A DNA stretch of 64,000 nucleotides from Escherichia phage vB-EcoP-XT73, in sequence record OR757436.1; one strand, given 5' to 3'. Positions 1 through 59,682 of this stretch are shown piece by piece (within the stretch, counting starts at the first letter, position 1; every line of letters starts with the position of its first letter). The translations under genes were made by a program, and so were the position numbers. The notes under the pieces were generated by a model. It was not told where the DNA came from and did not search any database. It worked only from the letters and a program-made list of their open reading frames with translations.

Positions 1-828
1 ATGACCTTCGGTATTCGATGGGGGGAGGTGGTAGCAATCGGTGGTGGTGTAGGTAGTGGTAAAACACTAATTGCTCACGAACTGGTTGCTCATCTGTGCT
101 TAGAGCATGGTTTTAATGGGGGTGGCTTCTTCTTGGAAGAGAAGGTAGGCATGTCTGTTAAGAACATCGCTGGTAAGTCAGCATCAATTCCTTTCCACCG
201 ACCTGATGTTGAATATGACGAGGAAGATTTGCGTAATGAAGCACTTCGTTATGCAGACAAATTCTTCTTGTATGACAACTTTGGGCAGAACGAATGGGAA
301 GACATTAAACAGTGTATCCGTTTCTGGGTAGTTGAAAACCAGTGTAAGTTCATCATTCTTGATAACATTACCGCTCTGGTATCTCATTTAACACCTTCAG
401 AGATTAACACTGAAATCAGTAAGATTGCTTCCGAGCTTGCTGGTATGTGTAAAGAATTAGACTTTACCGCTTTCGTGCTATCTCACCTTAATGCTCCGGC
501 AGGTGGTGCTCCTCACGAAGAAGGTGGACAGGTACGTGAAGTACAGTTCACTGGCTCTCGTTCTCTTATGCGTTGGTGTCAGTGTATCATTGGCTTTGAG
601 CGTGATAAGCAAGCTGACGGCTTAGCTAAGAACCTCTCAGTCATTCGATTATTGAAAGAACGTAACTACGGTCAGACTGGTGTCTGTTATACTAAGTATA
701 TCAGTGAAACCGGTAGACTTGTAGAAAGGGAAGACTTTGAAGTTGATGAAGATAATCCATTCGTTTTAACTAACGGAGAGGGTGCAGCTTCTCTCGTCAA
801 CCAAGCAGATGGAGCTTCACCGTGGTAA
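1..828 (+). CDS. DnaB-like replicative helicase, C-terminal domain (T7 gp4-like); 5' end lies outside the window
   Basis: Walker A-like GGGVGSGKT and a C-terminal stretch [32 protein letters not shown]...FERDKQ that aligns by eye with the T7 gp4 helicase region (LVICHLKNP...AHEEGRPVSITDLRGSGAL...ERNQQ). Confidence 0.8.
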
Positions 829-1376
829 AGAAAAAGAAAGTGTTTGCATTTGATATCGAAAGTAATGCACTATACGATGACATAACTAAAGTATGGTGTA
901 TTTACATTTTCGATGTTGAAACTGGTGAAAGGTGGGGCTACCGGCCTCACCAAATTGAAGATGGGATTCGTAAACTTACAGAAGCAGATGTACTAGTAGG
1001 TCATAATATTATTGACTTCGACTTACCTGCTCTGAAAAAGATATATCCCTCTTTGATTAAATATAATTTTAACGTCTTTGACACTCTGTGTCTTAGTCGA
1101 TATCTTAAACCTGACCGTATTGGTGACAGTCCTGAGTATCCGAAAGGTGACCCTAGACATGGCCCAAGAGGTCATGGTTTGAAGCAATGGGGTGAGTTCT
1201 TAGAGGAACTTAAAGGAGACTACGGTGAGCAAGAGGAAGCATGGGATGCTTTCACTGAAGATATGTTTACTTATTGTGAACAGGACGTTAACTTAACAGT
1301 TAAGGTTTATAAATACTTGTGTGAACTCACAGGATTTGACCCTTACGACCCACCTTCATTATATTGGAAAATGTAA
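822..1376 (+). CDS. DNA polymerase fragment 1: 3'-5' exonuclease domain (T7 gp5-like N-terminus)
   Basis: [48 protein letters not shown] and YCEQDVNLT match the T7 gp5 exo motifs (DIEANAL, HNGHKYDVPAL, DTLVLSRL, HALEAWGYRLGEMKGEY, YNVQDV). GTG start overlaps the helicase stop. The ORF stops at the exo/pol boundary. Confidence 0.85.
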
Positions 1377-1377
1377 A

Positions 1378-2739
1378 ATGATTGTTATCCCGATTAACCG
1401 AATTGAAGATAAGGTTGCTCAACAACCTGATATCACTGTCGGTCGTCACTTCATTGAACAGCTGATTAACAACAACTTGATTCCAGATGGTATCTGTCCC
1501 ATCATTACTGGTGGGGCTGTTCGTGACGCTGTTCTTAATAACATAGCACCTCATGACATCGATATCTTTATTGTCAGAGGACAGACACCAAGAACTCAAA
1601 ACACTTTCATCCGTCATGAACAGTGGCAAGCTCTTGGGCGTGAGATTGAAAGCAATGTGAAAGAGTGGCTAGAGTCACAAGATATTGAGTATTCATCTCT
1701 TCTTGCTGAAACTACAGATGAACCATATACAGGAACTTCCCAATTAACATTCACTGATATCATTGAATTTCAGTGGCAGGGAACTCGAATCCAATTCATG
1801 TTTAATTATCCCACTTCTATCGAAGAGGTATTGGATAATTTTCCTATGATGTGTCGTGGTGCGATGACCCTTGAAAACCTATTCATGACTCCTCATGGAT
1901 ATTTGGCTATGACCGCTCCCTGTCCAGTGGTTGTTTCTAGTCGTGAAATCAGATATGTTCACAAGAAGTGGCCTAATTCTCAGGTATTAAGATTCTCATC
2001 TCCAGCAGTTGCACATCAATACATGGCCCAAACTCGATACCTTCCCACACCTCAGCCGGTTAGTCATCTGGTCAACGAACGGGGTCAGGTTGCTCTTATT
2101 GAGGATACAACAAGTGCTCAGTATTGTGTTGACCGAGATATGAGTCTATTCTTTGGTATACCTTATGAAGAGATTCAGTTAATGTCGAGTCTTAACGGCT
2201 CTGGTCGGGTTCATGCGTATTGGTCTGAAGGGTTGACAAACTTAACAACTAATACAAGAGGAGATCTCCTTGGTCGGGAAGAGGAACCTAATCGGAACAA
2301 TGTAATTGAAGGGGTGTTTGTAGCCCCTGCAATGCGCCGAGCACAAGAGTCACGAAATCTAAGCTCTACTCGTAGAACATCTTTTGAAGAAACTCTTGGT
2401 GTTACTAGCGATTCATTTGAGCGGTGGTTGTCTAGACGTTCTAATGGTCAATCAAATGGTTTGACTGTTAGCCGTCACCAGTTCTCTGGTCAGAGTTTAG
2501 CTGTTGGTAATAGCAACGCACCTGTTATGGCTGTGTGGACCGATGAAGGTGTGGCCCAAGATGTGGTAAGTAGTCTTGATGTCCCTTCTCATGGTGAATT
2601 AGCTGAGACCGTCAGCCGCAATCTCGCTGATCGGTTTGTTGCTAACAACCCTGAAGTATTAGAGCCTCAAACCCGTACAGTTCGGTTTGCCGATGAAGCG
2701 GGTCGTGGATTTTCTTTTGACATGGAAACAAATAACTAA
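1378..2739 (+). CDS. Pol-beta-superfamily nucleotidyltransferase-domain protein (CCA-adding/poly(A)-polymerase-like head motif) with a low-complexity S/T/R-rich C-terminus
   Basis: Motif PIITGGAVRDAVLNNIAPHDIDIFIV resembles the GGAVRD...DxD signature of class II tRNA nucleotidyltransferases. ATG sits 1 nt after the exo-fragment stop (ATGTAAAATG), suggesting translational coupling. Confidence 0.5.
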   Translation: MIVIPINRIEDKVAQQPDITVGRHFIEQLINNNLIPDGICPIITGGAVRDAVLNNIAPHDIDIFIVRGQTPRTQNTFIRHEQWQALGREIESNVKEWLESQDIEYSSLLAETTDEPYTGTSQLTFTDIIEFQWQGTRIQFMFNYPTSIEEVLDNFPMMCRGAMTLENLFMTPHGYLAMTAPCPVVVSSREIRYVHKKWPNSQVLRFSSPAVAHQYMAQTRYLPTPQPVSHLVNERGQVALIEDTTSAQYCVDRDMSLFFGIPYEEIQLMSSLNGSGRVHAYWSEGLTNLTTNTRGDLLGREEEPNRNNVIEGVFVAPAMRRAQESRNLSSTRRTSFEETLGVTSDSFERWLSRRSNGQSNGLTVSRHQFSGQSLAVGNSNAPVMAVWTDEGVAQDVVSSLDVPSHGELAETVSRNLADRFVANNPEVLEPQTRTVRFADEAGRGFSFDMETNN

Positions 2740-2748
2740 GGAATAAAA

Positions 2749-3282
2749 ATGAGTTTACTAGGAAGTGTTGAACTACACGATGTAATTGATAATGGCTATC
2801 TGGATGCGGAGCATAAGTATGTTAACGCTGCTAGTGTGGATATCCGTATTGGTGATACTATCCTTGTTGAAGAACAGGCTGATGGCATCGTTGATATTGA
2901 TGCGAAAGAAAATCTTCAGTGGAAGGAAGTAAAAATCCCTGAAGAGGGCTTGGTTATCACTCCGGGTCAGTTCTTCTTGGCTCACTCTATGGAGGAGTTT
3001 AACCTTCCAGATAACATCTCAAGCCTGTTTGTTCTGCGTTCGTCTATGGCTCGTTGTGGTTTGAACCACCTTCACGCCGGATGGGCAGATGCAGGATTTA
3101 ACAGCAGTAAGCTGACATTTGAGTTCCATAACGTAACCAAGCATCATAGCTTACGAGTTCGTGCTGGTATGCGTGTTGGTCAGATGGTGATGTTTGAGCA
3201 CTCTCATGCAGGGGAACATTCCTATGCAGTGAAGGGTCGTTATAATAACTCTGAAGGTGTAGTTGCATCTAAAGGTGTGTAA
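2749..3282 (+). CDS. dcd: dCTP deaminase / dUTPase-superfamily protein
   Basis: 177 aa with SVDIRIGD, VITPGQFFLAHSMEEF and RSSMARCGL, typical of dCTP deaminases. Confidence 0.75.
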   Translation: MSLLGSVELHDVIDNGYLDAEHKYVNAASVDIRIGDTILVEEQADGIVDIDAKENLQWKEVKIPEEGLVITPGQFFLAHSMEEFNLPDNISSLFVLRSSMARCGLNHLHAGWADAGFNSSKLTFEFHNVTKHHSLRVRAGMRVGQMVMFEHSHAGEHSYAVKGRYNNSEGVVASKGV

Positions 3283-3489
3283 ATGACTGAAGAAGAGTTC
3301 CAAGAACTGAAAGGTTTGACTACCGAGGTTCAATTAAAAGCTATTACTTTTGGTCGAGCATGTCATCAATTTGATATATGCGTCGAAAGCAGTAAAGAAG
3401 CTTGTAAGAGCTATATGGATAAGAAGCACCTTGAATGGGGTAAAGCCTCTAACGATCTTTATAACTATATGAAGGGTTTAGTAAAATGA
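3283..3489 (+). CDS. hypothetical protein
   Basis: 68-aa ORF tightly packed between neighbours. Confidence 0.4.
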   Translation: MTEEEFQELKGLTTEVQLKAITFGRACHQFDICVESSKEACKSYMDKKHLEWGKASNDLYNYMKGLVK

Positions 3490-3683
3490 AAAAGTGGATT
3501 GTTCGTGTACATGATGATACGACTGGAGACTTGGTAGCTGTAGATTTTATTAACACTCGAGAACACGCCCGTAGGGTCAAAAACCAATACAAGTCTACTT
3601 TTAGACTCAATAAGGTTACAATAGGAAAAGCTATTGTGAATAACGAAGGTGCTCTTTTTGCCAACAGCAAGGTTTATTATTAA
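3486..3683 (+). CDS. small protein, paralogue family A
   Basis: Shares W-I/V-R-V ... F-T-R-x-x-A-R-x-x-K ... K-V-x-Y-Y pattern with the ORFs at 3683, 3892, 6442 and 13529. Confidence 0.5.
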   Translation: MKKWIVRVHDDTTGDLVAVDFINTREHARRVKNQYKSTFRLNKVTIGKAIVNNEGALFANSKVYY

Positions 3684-3892
3684 TGAGACCAATCACTATG
3701 AGACAGTTTTGGTTAGCAAAGATTAAGTGGGCATCAGGTGGTATGACTATGACTGCACTTCCTACTCGTCAACAGGCTCGAGATTTTAAAAAGACTATGC
3801 TTACTGGTGACGTGGTCAATAGTATCAGTATCCATAAGGCCAAGGAGTATTCTTCTGGTCGTGTTTATATCAGCGGAAAGGTACATTACTAA
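3683..3892 (+). CDS. small protein, paralogue family A
   Basis: Tandem paralogue; start overlaps the upstream stop. Confidence 0.5.
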   Translation: MRPITMRQFWLAKIKWASGGMTMTALPTRQQARDFKKTMLTGDVVNSISIHKAKEYSSGRVYISGKVHY

Positions 3893-4101
3893 TGAAAAAG
3901 ATGTGGGCGATTCGTGTTGTTTGGGATCTTGATCAACACACGAGAAAAGATAGCATCAAATTGTTTGACACTCGCAAAGAGGCTCGTATTGCTAAGAAAC
4001 AGTTGAAGACTCTGGGCACAATAGTAAAAAGCGCTGATATACATCGCTGGTACGAAGACCCTAACTCGGGTTCTTTTATGTCTAAAGTAATTTATTACTG
4101 A
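3892..4101 (+). CDS. small protein, paralogue family A
   Basis: MKKMWAIRVVWD...FDTRKEARIAKKQLK...KVIYY; third tandem copy. Confidence 0.5.
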   Translation: MKKMWAIRVVWDLDQHTRKDSIKLFDTRKEARIAKKQLKTLGTIVKSADIHRWYEDPNSGSFMSKVIYY

Positions 4102-6666: not shown

Positions 6667-7323
6667 ATGAATGAACAATTACAAGCAACATTAATCGAAG
6701 CTATGGGAAGTGATCGTAGCGTAGTAAACGCAGCTCGAGTTTCCTTTGGCGTAACCCGTGAAGGTGATTTAAATGAACGTGATGAACGTCTCATCAACTT
6801 CCTCGCAAGAGAGAAGCATGTTACTCCATTCCGACACCCACAAGTCAGTTTCCGATGCAAAGCACCTATCGCAATTGCGAGACAGTTGGGCAAGCATCAG
6901 GTTGGATTCTCGTGGAACGAAATGTCCCGGCGGTATAAAGATGGAGCAGTTGAAGTCTTCATCCCTAAAGAGATTTTTGCGAGACCTTCGGACCTCCATG
7001 CAGGTTCAGGGGTTCAACTCATCGATGGAGAACGAGCTGAAGCATTAATGTTGATTAACGATGCATACGAAGCTTCTCTAGCAGCATATGACAAGTTGAT
7101 TGAATTCGTTGCACCAGAACAAGCCCGATTTGTTCTTCCTCAGGGAATGATCACTGAGTGGGTGTGGACTGGTTCTTTGTATGGCTGGTTTGAGTTGTGT
7201 CGTCAGCGACTATCCTCCCATGCTCAGTATGAAGTTCGAGTGTTTGCTCAATCTCTGGATGAAGAGATGGCTAAACTCTACCCAATCTCGTGGGCAGCTC
7301 TGAAGAAAACTTTGGAGAGTTAA
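6667..7323 (+). CDS. thyX: flavin-dependent thymidylate synthase (ThyX)-like
   Basis: 218 aa with HVTPFRHPQVSF and SWNEMSRRY segments resembling ThyX RHR and S-x-R-Y motifs; sits in the nucleotide-metabolism cluster. Confidence 0.55.
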   Translation: MNEQLQATLIEAMGSDRSVVNAARVSFGVTREGDLNERDERLINFLAREKHVTPFRHPQVSFRCKAPIAIARQLGKHQVGFSWNEMSRRYKDGAVEVFIPKEIFARPSDLHAGSGVQLIDGERAEALMLINDAYEASLAAYDKLIEFVAPEQARFVLPQGMITEWVWTGSLYGWFELCRQRLSSHAQYEVRVFAQSLDEEMAKLYPISWAALKKTLES

Positions 7324-10714: not shown

Positions 10715-12559
10715 GTGAGCAACCCGGACGCTCTCCCATTTTTGACAGAGATGACTGTCGCTGATATAATCTCTAAGCAAGCGAAGCACGGAGTGAGTTT
10801 CAACCGAAGAAATGCTCGGTGGTATGTTCACCTCCTTAAAGAGATTATTGTTAATATTGACAAAGAACTGATTCCTCTCTTACCTAAGATGCGATTAGAT
10901 GGCTCTACTTACATGAAACCATTTAAGAAGTCTGGAGCTTTACAGAAATGGCCTCAAGCCTATTGTGATAGAGTTGGACTTAAGAGAGAAGACATTGGTG
11001 GAGCATTCACCTGTGTTGAATACGTAGACTTTGACCCATCGAAAGATGCACGAGTTAAAGAAGCCCTTATGGATGAGGGTTTTCTTCCTCCAGAGTTTAA
11101 CGTATCAAAGAAACCTTGGAATACTTTTGAAATCAAGAAAGATATGCGAAAGTATGGAACATACCAAGCATGGTATTCAGCTTGGATGCGAGGTAATGCT
11201 AAACAGAAGCAGACAGCCGAGATGGTTGACGCTGATATTAGGAAGTTCTTAGAAAAGCATTTTAGGTTTAAGACTAAGAACTATATGAAGGCTTATGTAT
11301 TTGGTTTAGGTTTAAATCCTAACCGACGTAGACCTATCACTTTTGACGAGATTAAGATAGCACTAGCTACCTCAAACAAGTGGCCTACAGCTCCTACAAA
11401 CCTCGAGGAGACTCTTGAAGAAGGGTTAGGGGGTGAGTTAGGAAGTGTCGGAAGTTTGCTTAAGAGACGCGTTGTAGCGGCTCACAGGCTAGGTCTTATC
11501 AGTGGACTAATAGCAAAGGAACGCGAAGATGGTAAACTTTCGGCAGAAGCTAACAGCTGCGCTACGCCGACTTTTCGATTCAAACATCGTATCGTGGTTA
11601 ATATTCCCTCCCGTGGTTTGTTTGGTCATGAGTGTCGCAGTTTGTTTGAGTCTGACTATAACTCAGATGATGATCACTCTCGTCCTTTCGTTATTACTAA
11701 CGTTGTTCCTGATGGTTGTTATATACGAAAAGGTACTAACGTAATTTACGAGAAAGGTAAGCCGGGGAAGAAAGATAAGCCTGTAGGTGCTTACAAATAT
11801 TACATACCCGCTGGTAAAGAAGTATTCTTAGGGTATGATGGTTCTGGGTTAGAGTTGCGTATGCTGGTACATTATCTAGTAAAAGAGTGCCTTGATATGA
11901 TGGAGGAGGCTAAACTAGAAAATGACAAAGTTAAATATCTAAGAGCTGAGAAAGGCTTAGAAGCTGCCTATACATACAGAGATGTACTGCTGTCTGGTGA
12001 TATTCATTCCCACAATCAGAAACTCGCTGGGCTTCCAACTCGTGACAATGCAAAAACCTTCATCTATGGATTCCTGTATGGAGCAGGAGCAGCTAAAATT
12101 GGGGAAATAGTTGGAGGGGGTGCTCAAGAAGGTGAAATTCTTAGAGAGCGATTCTTAGCGGAATGTCCTTGTATTCCTATCGTACTGGAGAGAGTTCAGG
12201 CCCGAGCGGAATCAGGCACTTTGGAAGGTGTGGATGGTCGTAAGTTAACTATGAGACGAGATGCTACTGGTAAGGTTATGGTGCATAAAGCACTGAATAC
12301 TCTACTTCAGAGTGCAGGTGCCATTGTCATGAAGTACTCTATTCTGTTTACAAACAAATGGGTAGAGCAGCAGAATATTAGAGGAAACAAAGTGATCGAT
12401 TATCATGATGAAGCACAGTGGTCTGTCAACCGTAACGACGTTGATAAAATGAAGAAGATAGCTGAGACTTGTGTTAAGAAGGCAGGTGAATATCTAAACA
12501 TGCACTGTGAACTAGCTTCTGATTGTAAAATCGGATTGAATTGGATGCAAACTCACTAA
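10715..12559 (+). CDS. DNA polymerase fragment 2: family A polymerase domain (T7 gp5-like)
   Basis: DGSGLELRMLVHY, GDIHSHNQKLAGLPTRDNAKTFIYGFLYGAG, ALNTLLQSAGA and YHDEAQ match T7 gp5 (DASGLELRCLAHF, GDIHTKNQ...PTRDNAKTFIYGFLYGAG, ALNTLLQSAGA, VHDEIQ). GTG start after AAAGGAG. The N-terminus aligns with T7 residues just after the exo domain. Confidence 0.9.
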   Translation: MSNPDALPFLTEMTVADIISKQAKHGVSFNRRNARWYVHLLKEIIVNIDKELIPLLPKMRLDGSTYMKPFKKSGALQKWPQAYCDRVGLKREDIGGAFTCVEYVDFDPSKDARVKEALMDEGFLPPEFNVSKKPWNTFEIKKDMRKYGTYQAWYSAWMRGNAKQKQTAEMVDADIRKFLEKHFRFKTKNYMKAYVFGLGLNPNRRRPITFDEIKIALATSNKWPTAPTNLEETLEEGLGGELGSVGSLLKRRVVAAHRLGLISGLIAKEREDGKLSAEANSCATPTFRFKHRIVVNIPSRGLFGHECRSLFESDYNSDDDHSRPFVITNVVPDGCYIRKGTNVIYEKGKPGKKDKPVGAYKYYIPAGKEVFLGYDGSGLELRMLVHYLVKECLDMMEEAKLENDKVKYLRAEKGLEAAYTYRDVLLSGDIHSHNQKLAGLPTRDNAKTFIYGFLYGAGAAKIGEIVGGGAQEGEILRERFLAECPCIPIVLERVQARAESGTLEGVDGRKLTMRRDATGKVMVHKALNTLLQSAGAIVMKYSILFTNKWVEQQNIRGNKVIDYHDEAQWSVNRNDVDKMKKIAETCVKKAGEYLNMHCELASDCKIGLNWMQTH

Positions 12560-59607: not shown

Positions 59608-59682
59608 GTCCCTATAGTTAAAAGGATATAACAGATTTCTTCTAAAAATCCATTCTAGGTTCGAGTCCTAGTGGGGACGCCA
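59608..59682 (+). tRNA. tRNA-Arg (anticodon TCT)
   Basis: Hand-folded cloverleaf: acceptor gtcccta/tggggac (one G-U), D stem gtta/taac with GG in the loop, anticodon stem gattt/aaatc with loop cTTCTaa, T stem ctagg/cctag with loop ttcgagt, discriminator G and encoded CCA. Confidence 0.75.

Follow-up and report, generated by a model that had tools for sequence, protein, structure and literature searches.

The nucleotidyltransferase gene and its surroundings

We analysed a 64,000-nucleotide (nt) stretch of DNA from Escherichia phage vB-EcoP-XT73 (sequence record OR757436.1), referred to here as the window, in which a nucleotidyltransferase (NTase) gene lies between the genes for the DNA polymerase 3'-5' exonuclease (exo) subunit and a dCTP deaminase (Table 1). 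With high confidence, the product can be assigned to a phage-specific, Gad2-like group: it is a stand-alone nucleotidyltransferase that looks active and has a head of the class II type. Over its first 6 kb, the window shares 97% identity with Escherichia phage vB-EcoP-XT18 and 92–95% with about 70 further phiEco32-like podophages (Kuravirus, Gordonclarkvirinae). The Kuravirus proteins match the window NTase over its full length at 78–89% identity, and phiEco32 gp73, SU10 gp74 and the other Kuravirus orthologues are the same gene with no essential difference. A full-length match of 832 bits was also obtained with PHROG 12715 ('nucleotidyltransferase'), whose members in Kuravirus, Nieuwekanaalvirus and Suseptimavirus occupy the same position and are annotated from the motif only, those outside Kuravirus being 31–37% identical to the window NTase over aa 1–290; the phiEco32 counterpart, for example, is annotated phi32_73, 'nucleotidyltransferase'. 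The 'nucleotidyltransferase' or 'CCA-enzyme-like' label was already public, and an earlier interpretation of the letters alone (the sequence-only reading) repeats this existing annotation. New here are the finding that the protein is apparently not a CCA-adding enzyme, its placement beside Gad2 and the small phage NTases, an Asp-to-Pro change in their F-D motif, and the recognition of the gene as a divergence hot spot.

The relatives in three genera all begin with M-I/Y-x-I-P at the position of ATG 1378, which marks this codon, and not the in-frame GTG 1321, as the true start. As the sequence-only reading had stated, a single nucleotide separates the exo stop codon from this ATG. The spacing ranges from −4 to +2 nt in most relatives and is +18 nt in one, and the Shine-Dalgarno sequence of the NTase gene is weak (GGA, 11 nt upstream). 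From this geometry, translational coupling between exo and NTase is plausible, but it would not be specific to this pair, because the whole operon is tightly packed, the helicase and exo genes overlapping by 7 nt. A possible internal promoter lies within the exo gene, and the annotation of phage SU7 lists a promoter at the corresponding site; in the consensus scan of the region, the number of sigma-70-like hexamer matches was not above that in shuffled controls.

Table 1. Positions of the NTase gene, its parts and the adjoining features in the window (aa, amino acids; pLDDT, predicted local distance difference test)
Feature	Positions	Strand	Basis and remarks
NTase gene, 453 aa + stop	1378–2739	+	Open reading frame and translation, without internal stops; orthologue of phiEco32 gp73 / SU10 gp74
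Folded catalytic domain, aa 1–286 (Pol-beta/class II-like head and helical sub-domain)	1378–2235	+	pLDDT mostly 80–95
Motif A, T44-GGAVRD...H59-D60-I-D62-IFIV	1507–1575	+	Read from sequence; NTP-binding GG turn and metal-binding Asp pair
E130 on strand 125–133, putative third carboxylate	1765–1767	+	Acidic in 48/57 members (E 44, D 4); catalytic role putative
F155-P156-M-M-C159-R-G161	1840–1860	+	Aligned by hhalign with F-D-x-x-x-C-x-G of Gad2 and small phage NTases; Asp replaced by invariant Pro
Y193-V-H-K196-K197-W-P199, conserved basic helix motif	1954–1974	+	Y193 and K197 invariant; K196 is K/R in 54/57 members
Disordered, indel-rich C-terminal tail, aa 287–453	2236–2736	+	pLDDT <50 throughout
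DNA polymerase exo subunit	822–1376	+	Pfam DNA_pol_A_exo1, E 1.7e-9; PHROG 'DNA polymerase exonuclease subunit'
exo/NTase junction, TAA-A-ATG	1374–1380	+	exo stop TAA 1374–1376, single base A1377, ATG from 1378
Sigma-70-like TTGACC-18-TATATT, possible internal promoter	1336–1365	+	Consensus scan, 10/12 matches; 13 nt upstream of the NTase ATG, within the exo gene
dCTP deaminase	2749–3282	+	Pfam DCD, E 3.5e-34

An apparently intact active site in a predicted nucleotidyltransferase fold

The structure was modelled with AlphaFold2 from a 44-sequence alignment, and residue conservation was counted over 57 family members, each less than 60% identical to the window protein (non-Kuravirus). The model begins with strand 39–44, the G45-G46 turn, helix 46–53 and strand 61–67 with the D60/D62 region, which together form the classic nucleotidyltransferase pattern. 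Within motif A, TGGAVRDAVLN spans aa 44–54 (nt 1507–1539) and HDIDIFIV spans aa 59–66 (nt 1552–1575). Strands 125–133, which carries E130, and 136–146 come after motif A, followed by a small hairpin and by helices up to about residue 270. The protein thus displays all of the elements of the Pol-beta superfamily, namely a strand, GG turn, helix, DxD strand and a further carboxylate on a neighbouring strand, as well as the head-domain fold of class II enzymes.

In all 57 divergent members, G45, G46, R49, D50, D60, D62, F64, I128, Q139, P156, Y193 and K197 are invariant. Since the catalytic residues have remained unchanged over such deep divergence, the pattern is that of a working active site. 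Motif A is no chance match, given that six of its residues are invariant in the 57 members and that the predicted fold matches the class II nucleotidyltransferases. The nucleotidyltransferase motif recognized in the sequence-only reading is therefore borne out, and the catalytic Asp pair D60/D62 is in place in the predicted fold. The basic helix motif (Y193–P199) aligns with K-Y-P of the small phage NTases and with Q-K-Y-x-D-K-G-Y of Gad2, and may bind phosphate or nucleic acid.

The tail differs from the folded domain in composition. The Ser/Thr/Arg enrichment that had been pointed out earlier is real but modest, with S 11%, T 8% and R 10% in aa 287–453 as compared to 6%, 7% and 6%, respectively, in the domain. 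The tail further contains 9% N and no K (0%), and has a net charge of −6. It is absent from relatives of 282–287 aa, and cannot be aligned between genera.

Comparison with class II CCA-adding enzymes and poly(A) polymerases

The window NTase shares motif A, GGxVRD...DxD (G45–D50 and D60-I-D62), with the class II CCA-adding enzymes. In the neck of class II enzymes, motif B (RRD) senses the ribose and motif D (EDxxR) templates the base. The first 300 aa of the window protein contain neither RRD or [RK][RK]D nor EDxxR or [ED]DxX[RK], and the occurrences in relatives are not position-conserved. Furthermore, while the class II CCA enzymes and poly(A) polymerase I (PAP I) possess neck, body and tail domains, the window NTase lacks them, and hence would have no templating pocket or tRNA-binding surface. 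No match to the PAP I RNA-binding region (PF12627) or to any other RNA-binding domain was found at E values up to 1.

The head-domain profile PolyA_pol (PF01743), which the sequence-only reading had proposed as a check, does match the window NTase at E 6.7e-4, but its 20.4 bits fall below the 23-bit gathering score and the match spans only profile positions 3–85 of 126. At E values up to 0.1, 22 of the 44 family members match this profile (best E 4.7e-5). The structural neighbours of the model are CCA-adding enzymes, with a superposition of only about 160 residues. In searches of the PDB, the single window protein gave no match, the family profile gave only non-significant ones (CCA enzymes at E 1.5, over the motif) and the Gad2 profile gave none, while the profile of the small-NTase group matched, with E values from 2e-6 to 5e-4, both class II CCA enzymes and PAP I. 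CD-NTase/cGAS-like signalling enzymes and MenT/AbiEii toxins were also considered, and are not the closest structural or profile match. Domain fusions in distant homologues were uninformative; one such match, of 1455 aa, consists of four concatenated genuine class II enzymes.

As far as sequence and model allow us to judge, the window NTase is not a CCA-adding enzyme: motif A and the basic helix appear to have been kept, whereas the neck motifs and the tRNA-binding domains appear to have been lost. The CCA-enzyme-like identity proposed earlier thus survives for the class II-like head and fails for the neck motifs and the neck, body and tail. Accordingly, the label 'class II CCA-adding enzyme' on such phage genes should not be taken to mean tRNA repair.

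Remote kinship with Gad2 through the small phage nucleotidyltransferases

Gad2 of SPbetaL7 has been shown genetically to be necessary for the escape of this phage from Gabija, and is a predicted nucleotidyltransferase (Gad2 preprint). The Pfam family PF26128 ('Gad2') is assigned to every close homologue of the Brevibacillus Gad2 that was verified by experiment, and is also the precomputed tag on most Kuravirus NTases; on a protein 92% identical to the window NTase (P0002), it appears as 'Gad2 (weak)', with E between 1e-5 and 1e-3. Word-indexed sequence searches with the window NTase returned Gordonclarkvirinae-type proteins only, and a scan of IMG/VR for further relatives yielded three loci only. 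When the family profile was run in an exhaustive HMMER search, 331 cluster representatives were retrieved, of which about 30 fall in the core family. The remaining ones are small proteins of 170–400 aa that match the core region, and those looked up carry the PF26128 tag.

The small phage NTases (170–300 aa; podophages etc.) include PHROG 1614, LUZ24 gp42, the LKD16, fHe-Yen3-01, PP2 and phiAS7 proteins, and PF26128-tagged metagenomic proteins. They have the core in common with the window NTase, including GGAxRD, DIDIF, Q-x-I and K-Y/W-P, with Foldseek target TM-scores of 0.5–0.65 in BFVD, but lack its extra helical segment (aa 200–286) and long tail. In hhalign comparisons, the core family aligned with the small NTases with 99.5% probability (E 1e-22, over aa 1–220), and the small NTases aligned with the Gad2 family with 99.0% probability (E 5e-18). 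The small NTase genes often adjoin replication genes. Among the PF26128-tagged examples, LUZ24 gp42 (L011 5956–6900) lies directly after a 5'-3' exonuclease gene and P0111 (L018 291–965) lies directly upstream of a family A polymerase gene, while the one on a metagenomic contig (L017 5001–5555) is found among Macro, Acb5 and T5-A2-like early genes.

Gad2 (Bacillus phages SPbetaL6/L7 and a Brevibacillus prophage; PF26128) is, like the window NTase, phage-encoded and built on an N-terminal Pol-beta/class II-like core. The direct hhalign comparison of the core family with Gad2 gave 61% probability and a P value of 7.9e-5 over 171 columns, as compared to 0.042 for the reversed control. The motifs are collinear, with GGAVRD, DIDIF, IQFMF, FPMMCRGA and YVHKKW of the core family corresponding to GGTITS, DLDVYF, IQLIH, FDFTVCMGC and QKYEDKGY of Gad2. 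Common to both are a GG turn, DxD-(I/V)-(F/Y)-F, I-Q-x-(M/I), F-x...C-x-G and a basic K-(W/Y) helix, and the two models follow the same order of secondary structure over about 200 residues; in place of GGAVRD, Gad2 has GG(T/A)ITS. A bridge is provided by P0151, which was found by the Kuravirus profile at E 8e-7 among 1.8 billion proteins and matches the annotated Gad2 gene of SPbetaL7 at 7e-9. The kinship between the core family and Gad2 is visible only at the profile-profile level and through intermediates.

The F-D motif sets the families apart. In the Gad2 alignment (A5), F106 and D107 are invariant, as are, with few exceptions, F131 and D132 in the small-NTase alignment (A6), whereas the window family has Pro at the position of this Asp, together with a conserved acidic residue at E130. 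The F-D motif resembles 'RRDF' of class II motif B, to which it may be equivalent.

A fixed gene order and an exceptionally divergent gene

The order primase/helicase, exo, NTase and dCTP deaminase is kept in Kuravirus, Nieuwekanaalvirus, Suseptimavirus and four more distant metagenomic phages. We compared the identities to the window across these genera and the metagenomic relatives. They amount to 83–92% for the helicase (C-terminal part), 61–87% for the exo subunit and 80–96% for the dCTP deaminase, but only to 30–38% for the NTase domain (aa 1–286); the NTase tail is unalignable. Similarity at the DNA level to the SU7-type phages ends at 1383 and restarts at 2770, the borders of the NTase gene.

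The same ranking is seen at short range. In eight Kuravirus genomes (28 pairs), the median ratio of nonsynonymous to synonymous substitutions (dN/dS) is 0.009 for the helicase, 0.029 for the dCTP deaminase, 0.077 for the exo subunit, 0.142 for the NTase domain and 0.397 for the NTase tail, and the NTase domain likewise leads in synonymous divergence. By these sequence comparisons, the NTase gene is functional and constrained, yet by far the fastest-evolving member of a highly conserved block.

Allele exchange was suspected for TH34, which is labelled Kuravirus and carries an SU7-type NTase, and was rejected, as the entire TH34 locus is 90% identical to SU7. The flanks in this record (L006, MT446407.1, UNVERIFIED) are only 79–87% identical to the window, and its Kuravirus label seems to be wrong.

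Several other features of the region were noted. Two separate genes encode the family A DNA polymerase, one for the exo subunit and one, at 10715–12559, with the polymerase domain (PF00476, E 1e-20); they are 9.3 kb apart, with nucleotide-metabolism genes in between. At 3486–3683, 3683–3892 and 3892–4101, three tandem abutting small open reading frames of 65–69 aa correspond to phiEco32 genes 69–71, and are paralogues with 25–28% identity and the common pattern W...TR..AR..K...KV.Y. In related phages, genes for an ATP-grasp/RimK-like ligase, an amidoligase, a glutamine amidotransferase and a gamma-glutamyl cyclotransferase lie upstream of the helicase (L001 319–1512 and 2019–2438; L007 1–2286); this peptide- or amide-bond-forming set lies beyond the left end of the window.

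A tentative counter-defence role and its alternatives

The best explanation, which we put forward tentatively, is a counter-defence enzyme that engages a variable host factor. We favour it because a conserved catalytic core is combined with a fast-changing remainder and a hypervariable disordered tail, and because Gad2 is the sole functional precedent in the group. For an enzyme working on an invariant substrate, such as tRNA ends or DNA chemistry, within a conserved replisome, one would expect the same degree of conservation as in the neighbouring genes.

In the proposed mechanism, the head domain would have descended from the class II CCA-adding/poly(A) polymerase lineage, and the NTase would be made early or mid infection alongside the replication proteins. 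With Mg2+, the GG turn, D60/D62 and probably E130 would move a nucleotide from a nucleoside or deoxynucleoside triphosphate (NTP or dNTP) to an acceptor, which may belong to, or be watched by, the variable host factor. The most likely target would be a nuclease/helicase-type defence such as Gabija, or DNA or RNA ends sensed by such systems, and the variable disordered tail could serve as a recruiting or decoy arm.

A number of observations weigh against the counter-defence reading. The link to Gad2 is remote and, as judged from sequence, concerns the NTase core only: pairwise BLAST of the window NTase against Gad2 finds nothing, and a narrow hidden Markov model from 120 close Gad2 homologues misses the Kuravirus proteins. 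Gad2 always and the small NTases almost always carry an Asp in the F-D motif, where the Kuravirus-type family has Pro (P156) without exception. Gad2 also has a β-rich C-terminal domain of about 150 residues (12 strands in 250–376) that is absent from the window NTase, in which helices extend to residue 270 and are followed by disorder, and no alignment continues past Gad2 residue 195. The mechanism of Gad2 itself is not established, so that 'works like Gad2' predicts little, and NCBIfam and PADLOC scans of the window NTase gave no match. While the Gad2 gene resides in a variable anti-defence locus, the window NTase gene is fixed within the replication operon; it is universal and position-locked in the replication/nucleotide-metabolism operon of every relative examined, unlike patchy anti-defence genes, and in this respect a DNA-directed role fits equally well. 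The high divergence may also mean weak constraint, although dN/dS is well below 1 everywhere. We found in the literature neither a functional study of this gene nor an experiment on this protein, and Gabija did not turn up as a term in the BASEL-collection paper on these phages.

Such a role directed at DNA, as part of the replisome or to protect the genome, is the main rival of the counter-defence reading, though on balance we consider it unlikely. It would entail the untemplated extension of DNA 3' ends by (deoxy)nucleotides, or a covalent DNA modification carried out together with the neighbouring dCTP deaminase. The strict order helicase-exo-NTase-dCTP deaminase throughout the subfamily, the stop-start abutment to exo and the replication genes adjoining LUZ24 gp42 and P0111, distant members of the group, all argue for it. 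So does the loss of the Asp in the motif putatively equivalent to class II motif B, a change that, judged by class II enzymology, could relax the preference for ribonucleotides. The Gordonclarkvirinae resist restriction-modification systems, and the authors who described this resistance comment on the NTase gene and raised the NTase and dCTP deaminase pair as a possible explanation (BASEL-collection paper). Site avoidance was rejected as the source of the resistance for EcoRV, EcoKI, EcoP1 and EcoRI: the window contains 29 EcoRV, 9 EcoKI and 104 EcoP1 sites, none of which is depleted, and 9 EcoRI sites against about 20 expected, a mild depletion. Conversely, no DNA-modification pathway is known to use a class II-type Pol-beta NTase, and no modification of these genomes is reported (BASEL-collection paper). 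The published suggestion of dU-containing DNA is unlikely, because the dCTP deaminase and the flavin-dependent thymidylate synthase ThyX (6667–7323; PF02511, E 1.4e-43) form the ordinary dC-to-dT route that supplies dTTP, in a genome of 41.8% GC. An enzyme acting on invariant DNA chemistry would, moreover, be expected at the 80–96% identity of the neighbours, and not at 30–38%.

Site usage in the 64-kb window is skewed in other respects. Of CCWGG there are 10 copies where about 71 would be expected, of PstI sites none (about 12 expected) and of GATC 136 (about 238 expected), while CAGCAG/CTGCTG is enriched (73 against about 20 expected).

Somewhat less probable still is RNA 3'-tailing of the poly(A)- or poly(N)-polymerase type, by which host or phage transcripts would be marked for decay or stabilised, the Arg/Ser-rich tail being an arm that binds RNA non-specifically. 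The tail is an unpromising candidate for such an arm, in view of its negative net charge and its absence from some relatives; the PAP I RNA-binding region is missing, and nothing in the gene context suggests RNA metabolism.

Repair of tRNA 3' CCA ends to counter acceptor-end damage by nucleases or toxins of the host, a role that the sequence-only reading had proposed and that matches the old GenBank label, has been weakened to the point of being improbable. The class II signature of motif A, the CCA-adding enzymes among the structural neighbours and the match of the small-NTase profile to CCA enzymes in the PDB (E 2e-6) speak for this role. They are outweighed by the missing RRD and EDxxR motifs, by the missing neck, body and tail domains and a Pfam head domain below threshold, and by the 30–38% identity between sister genera of an enzyme whose substrate, tRNA, is invariant. 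A Cca enzyme is also supplied by the host, and the 3' CCA is genome-encoded in the only phage tRNA in the window, a tRNA-Arg (anticodon TCT) at 59608–59682.

Very improbable, finally, is a scaffold without catalytic activity, in which a degenerate NTase fold would have been retained for structural or binding purposes: the change to Pro of the Asp conserved in Gad2 and the small NTases and the high evolutionary rate would suit it, but G45, G46, R49, D50, D60, D62, Q139, Y193 and K197 are invariant over deep divergence.

Implications for the Gordonclarkvirinae

The Gordonclarkvirinae are common broad-host-range coliphages that are considered for therapy and have been reported to be restriction-resistant without a known mechanism. 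Gad2 is the only functionally tested member of the large group of small phage NTases. A universal, position-locked and fast-evolving NTase therein represents a tractable test case, for which the BASEL phages Bas86–94 and E. coli genetics are at hand. It may provide insight into what the Gad2-class enzymes transfer and onto what, and a lead on the resistance of the Gordonclarkvirinae to immunity. As a long shot, the gp73-type enzyme could itself account for the broad and so far unexplained resistance of this subfamily to immunity. As a Gad2-like enzyme of Gram-negative phages that has lost the ribose-sensing Asp, it might use NTPs or dNTPs to nucleotidylate a defence nuclease or helicase of the host, or else to cap the ends of phage DNA, while its hypervariable surface and tail track the host defence alleles. 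If true, the gp73-type enzyme would be the first mechanistic handle on how the Gad2 class defeats defences that sense DNA ends or nucleotides.

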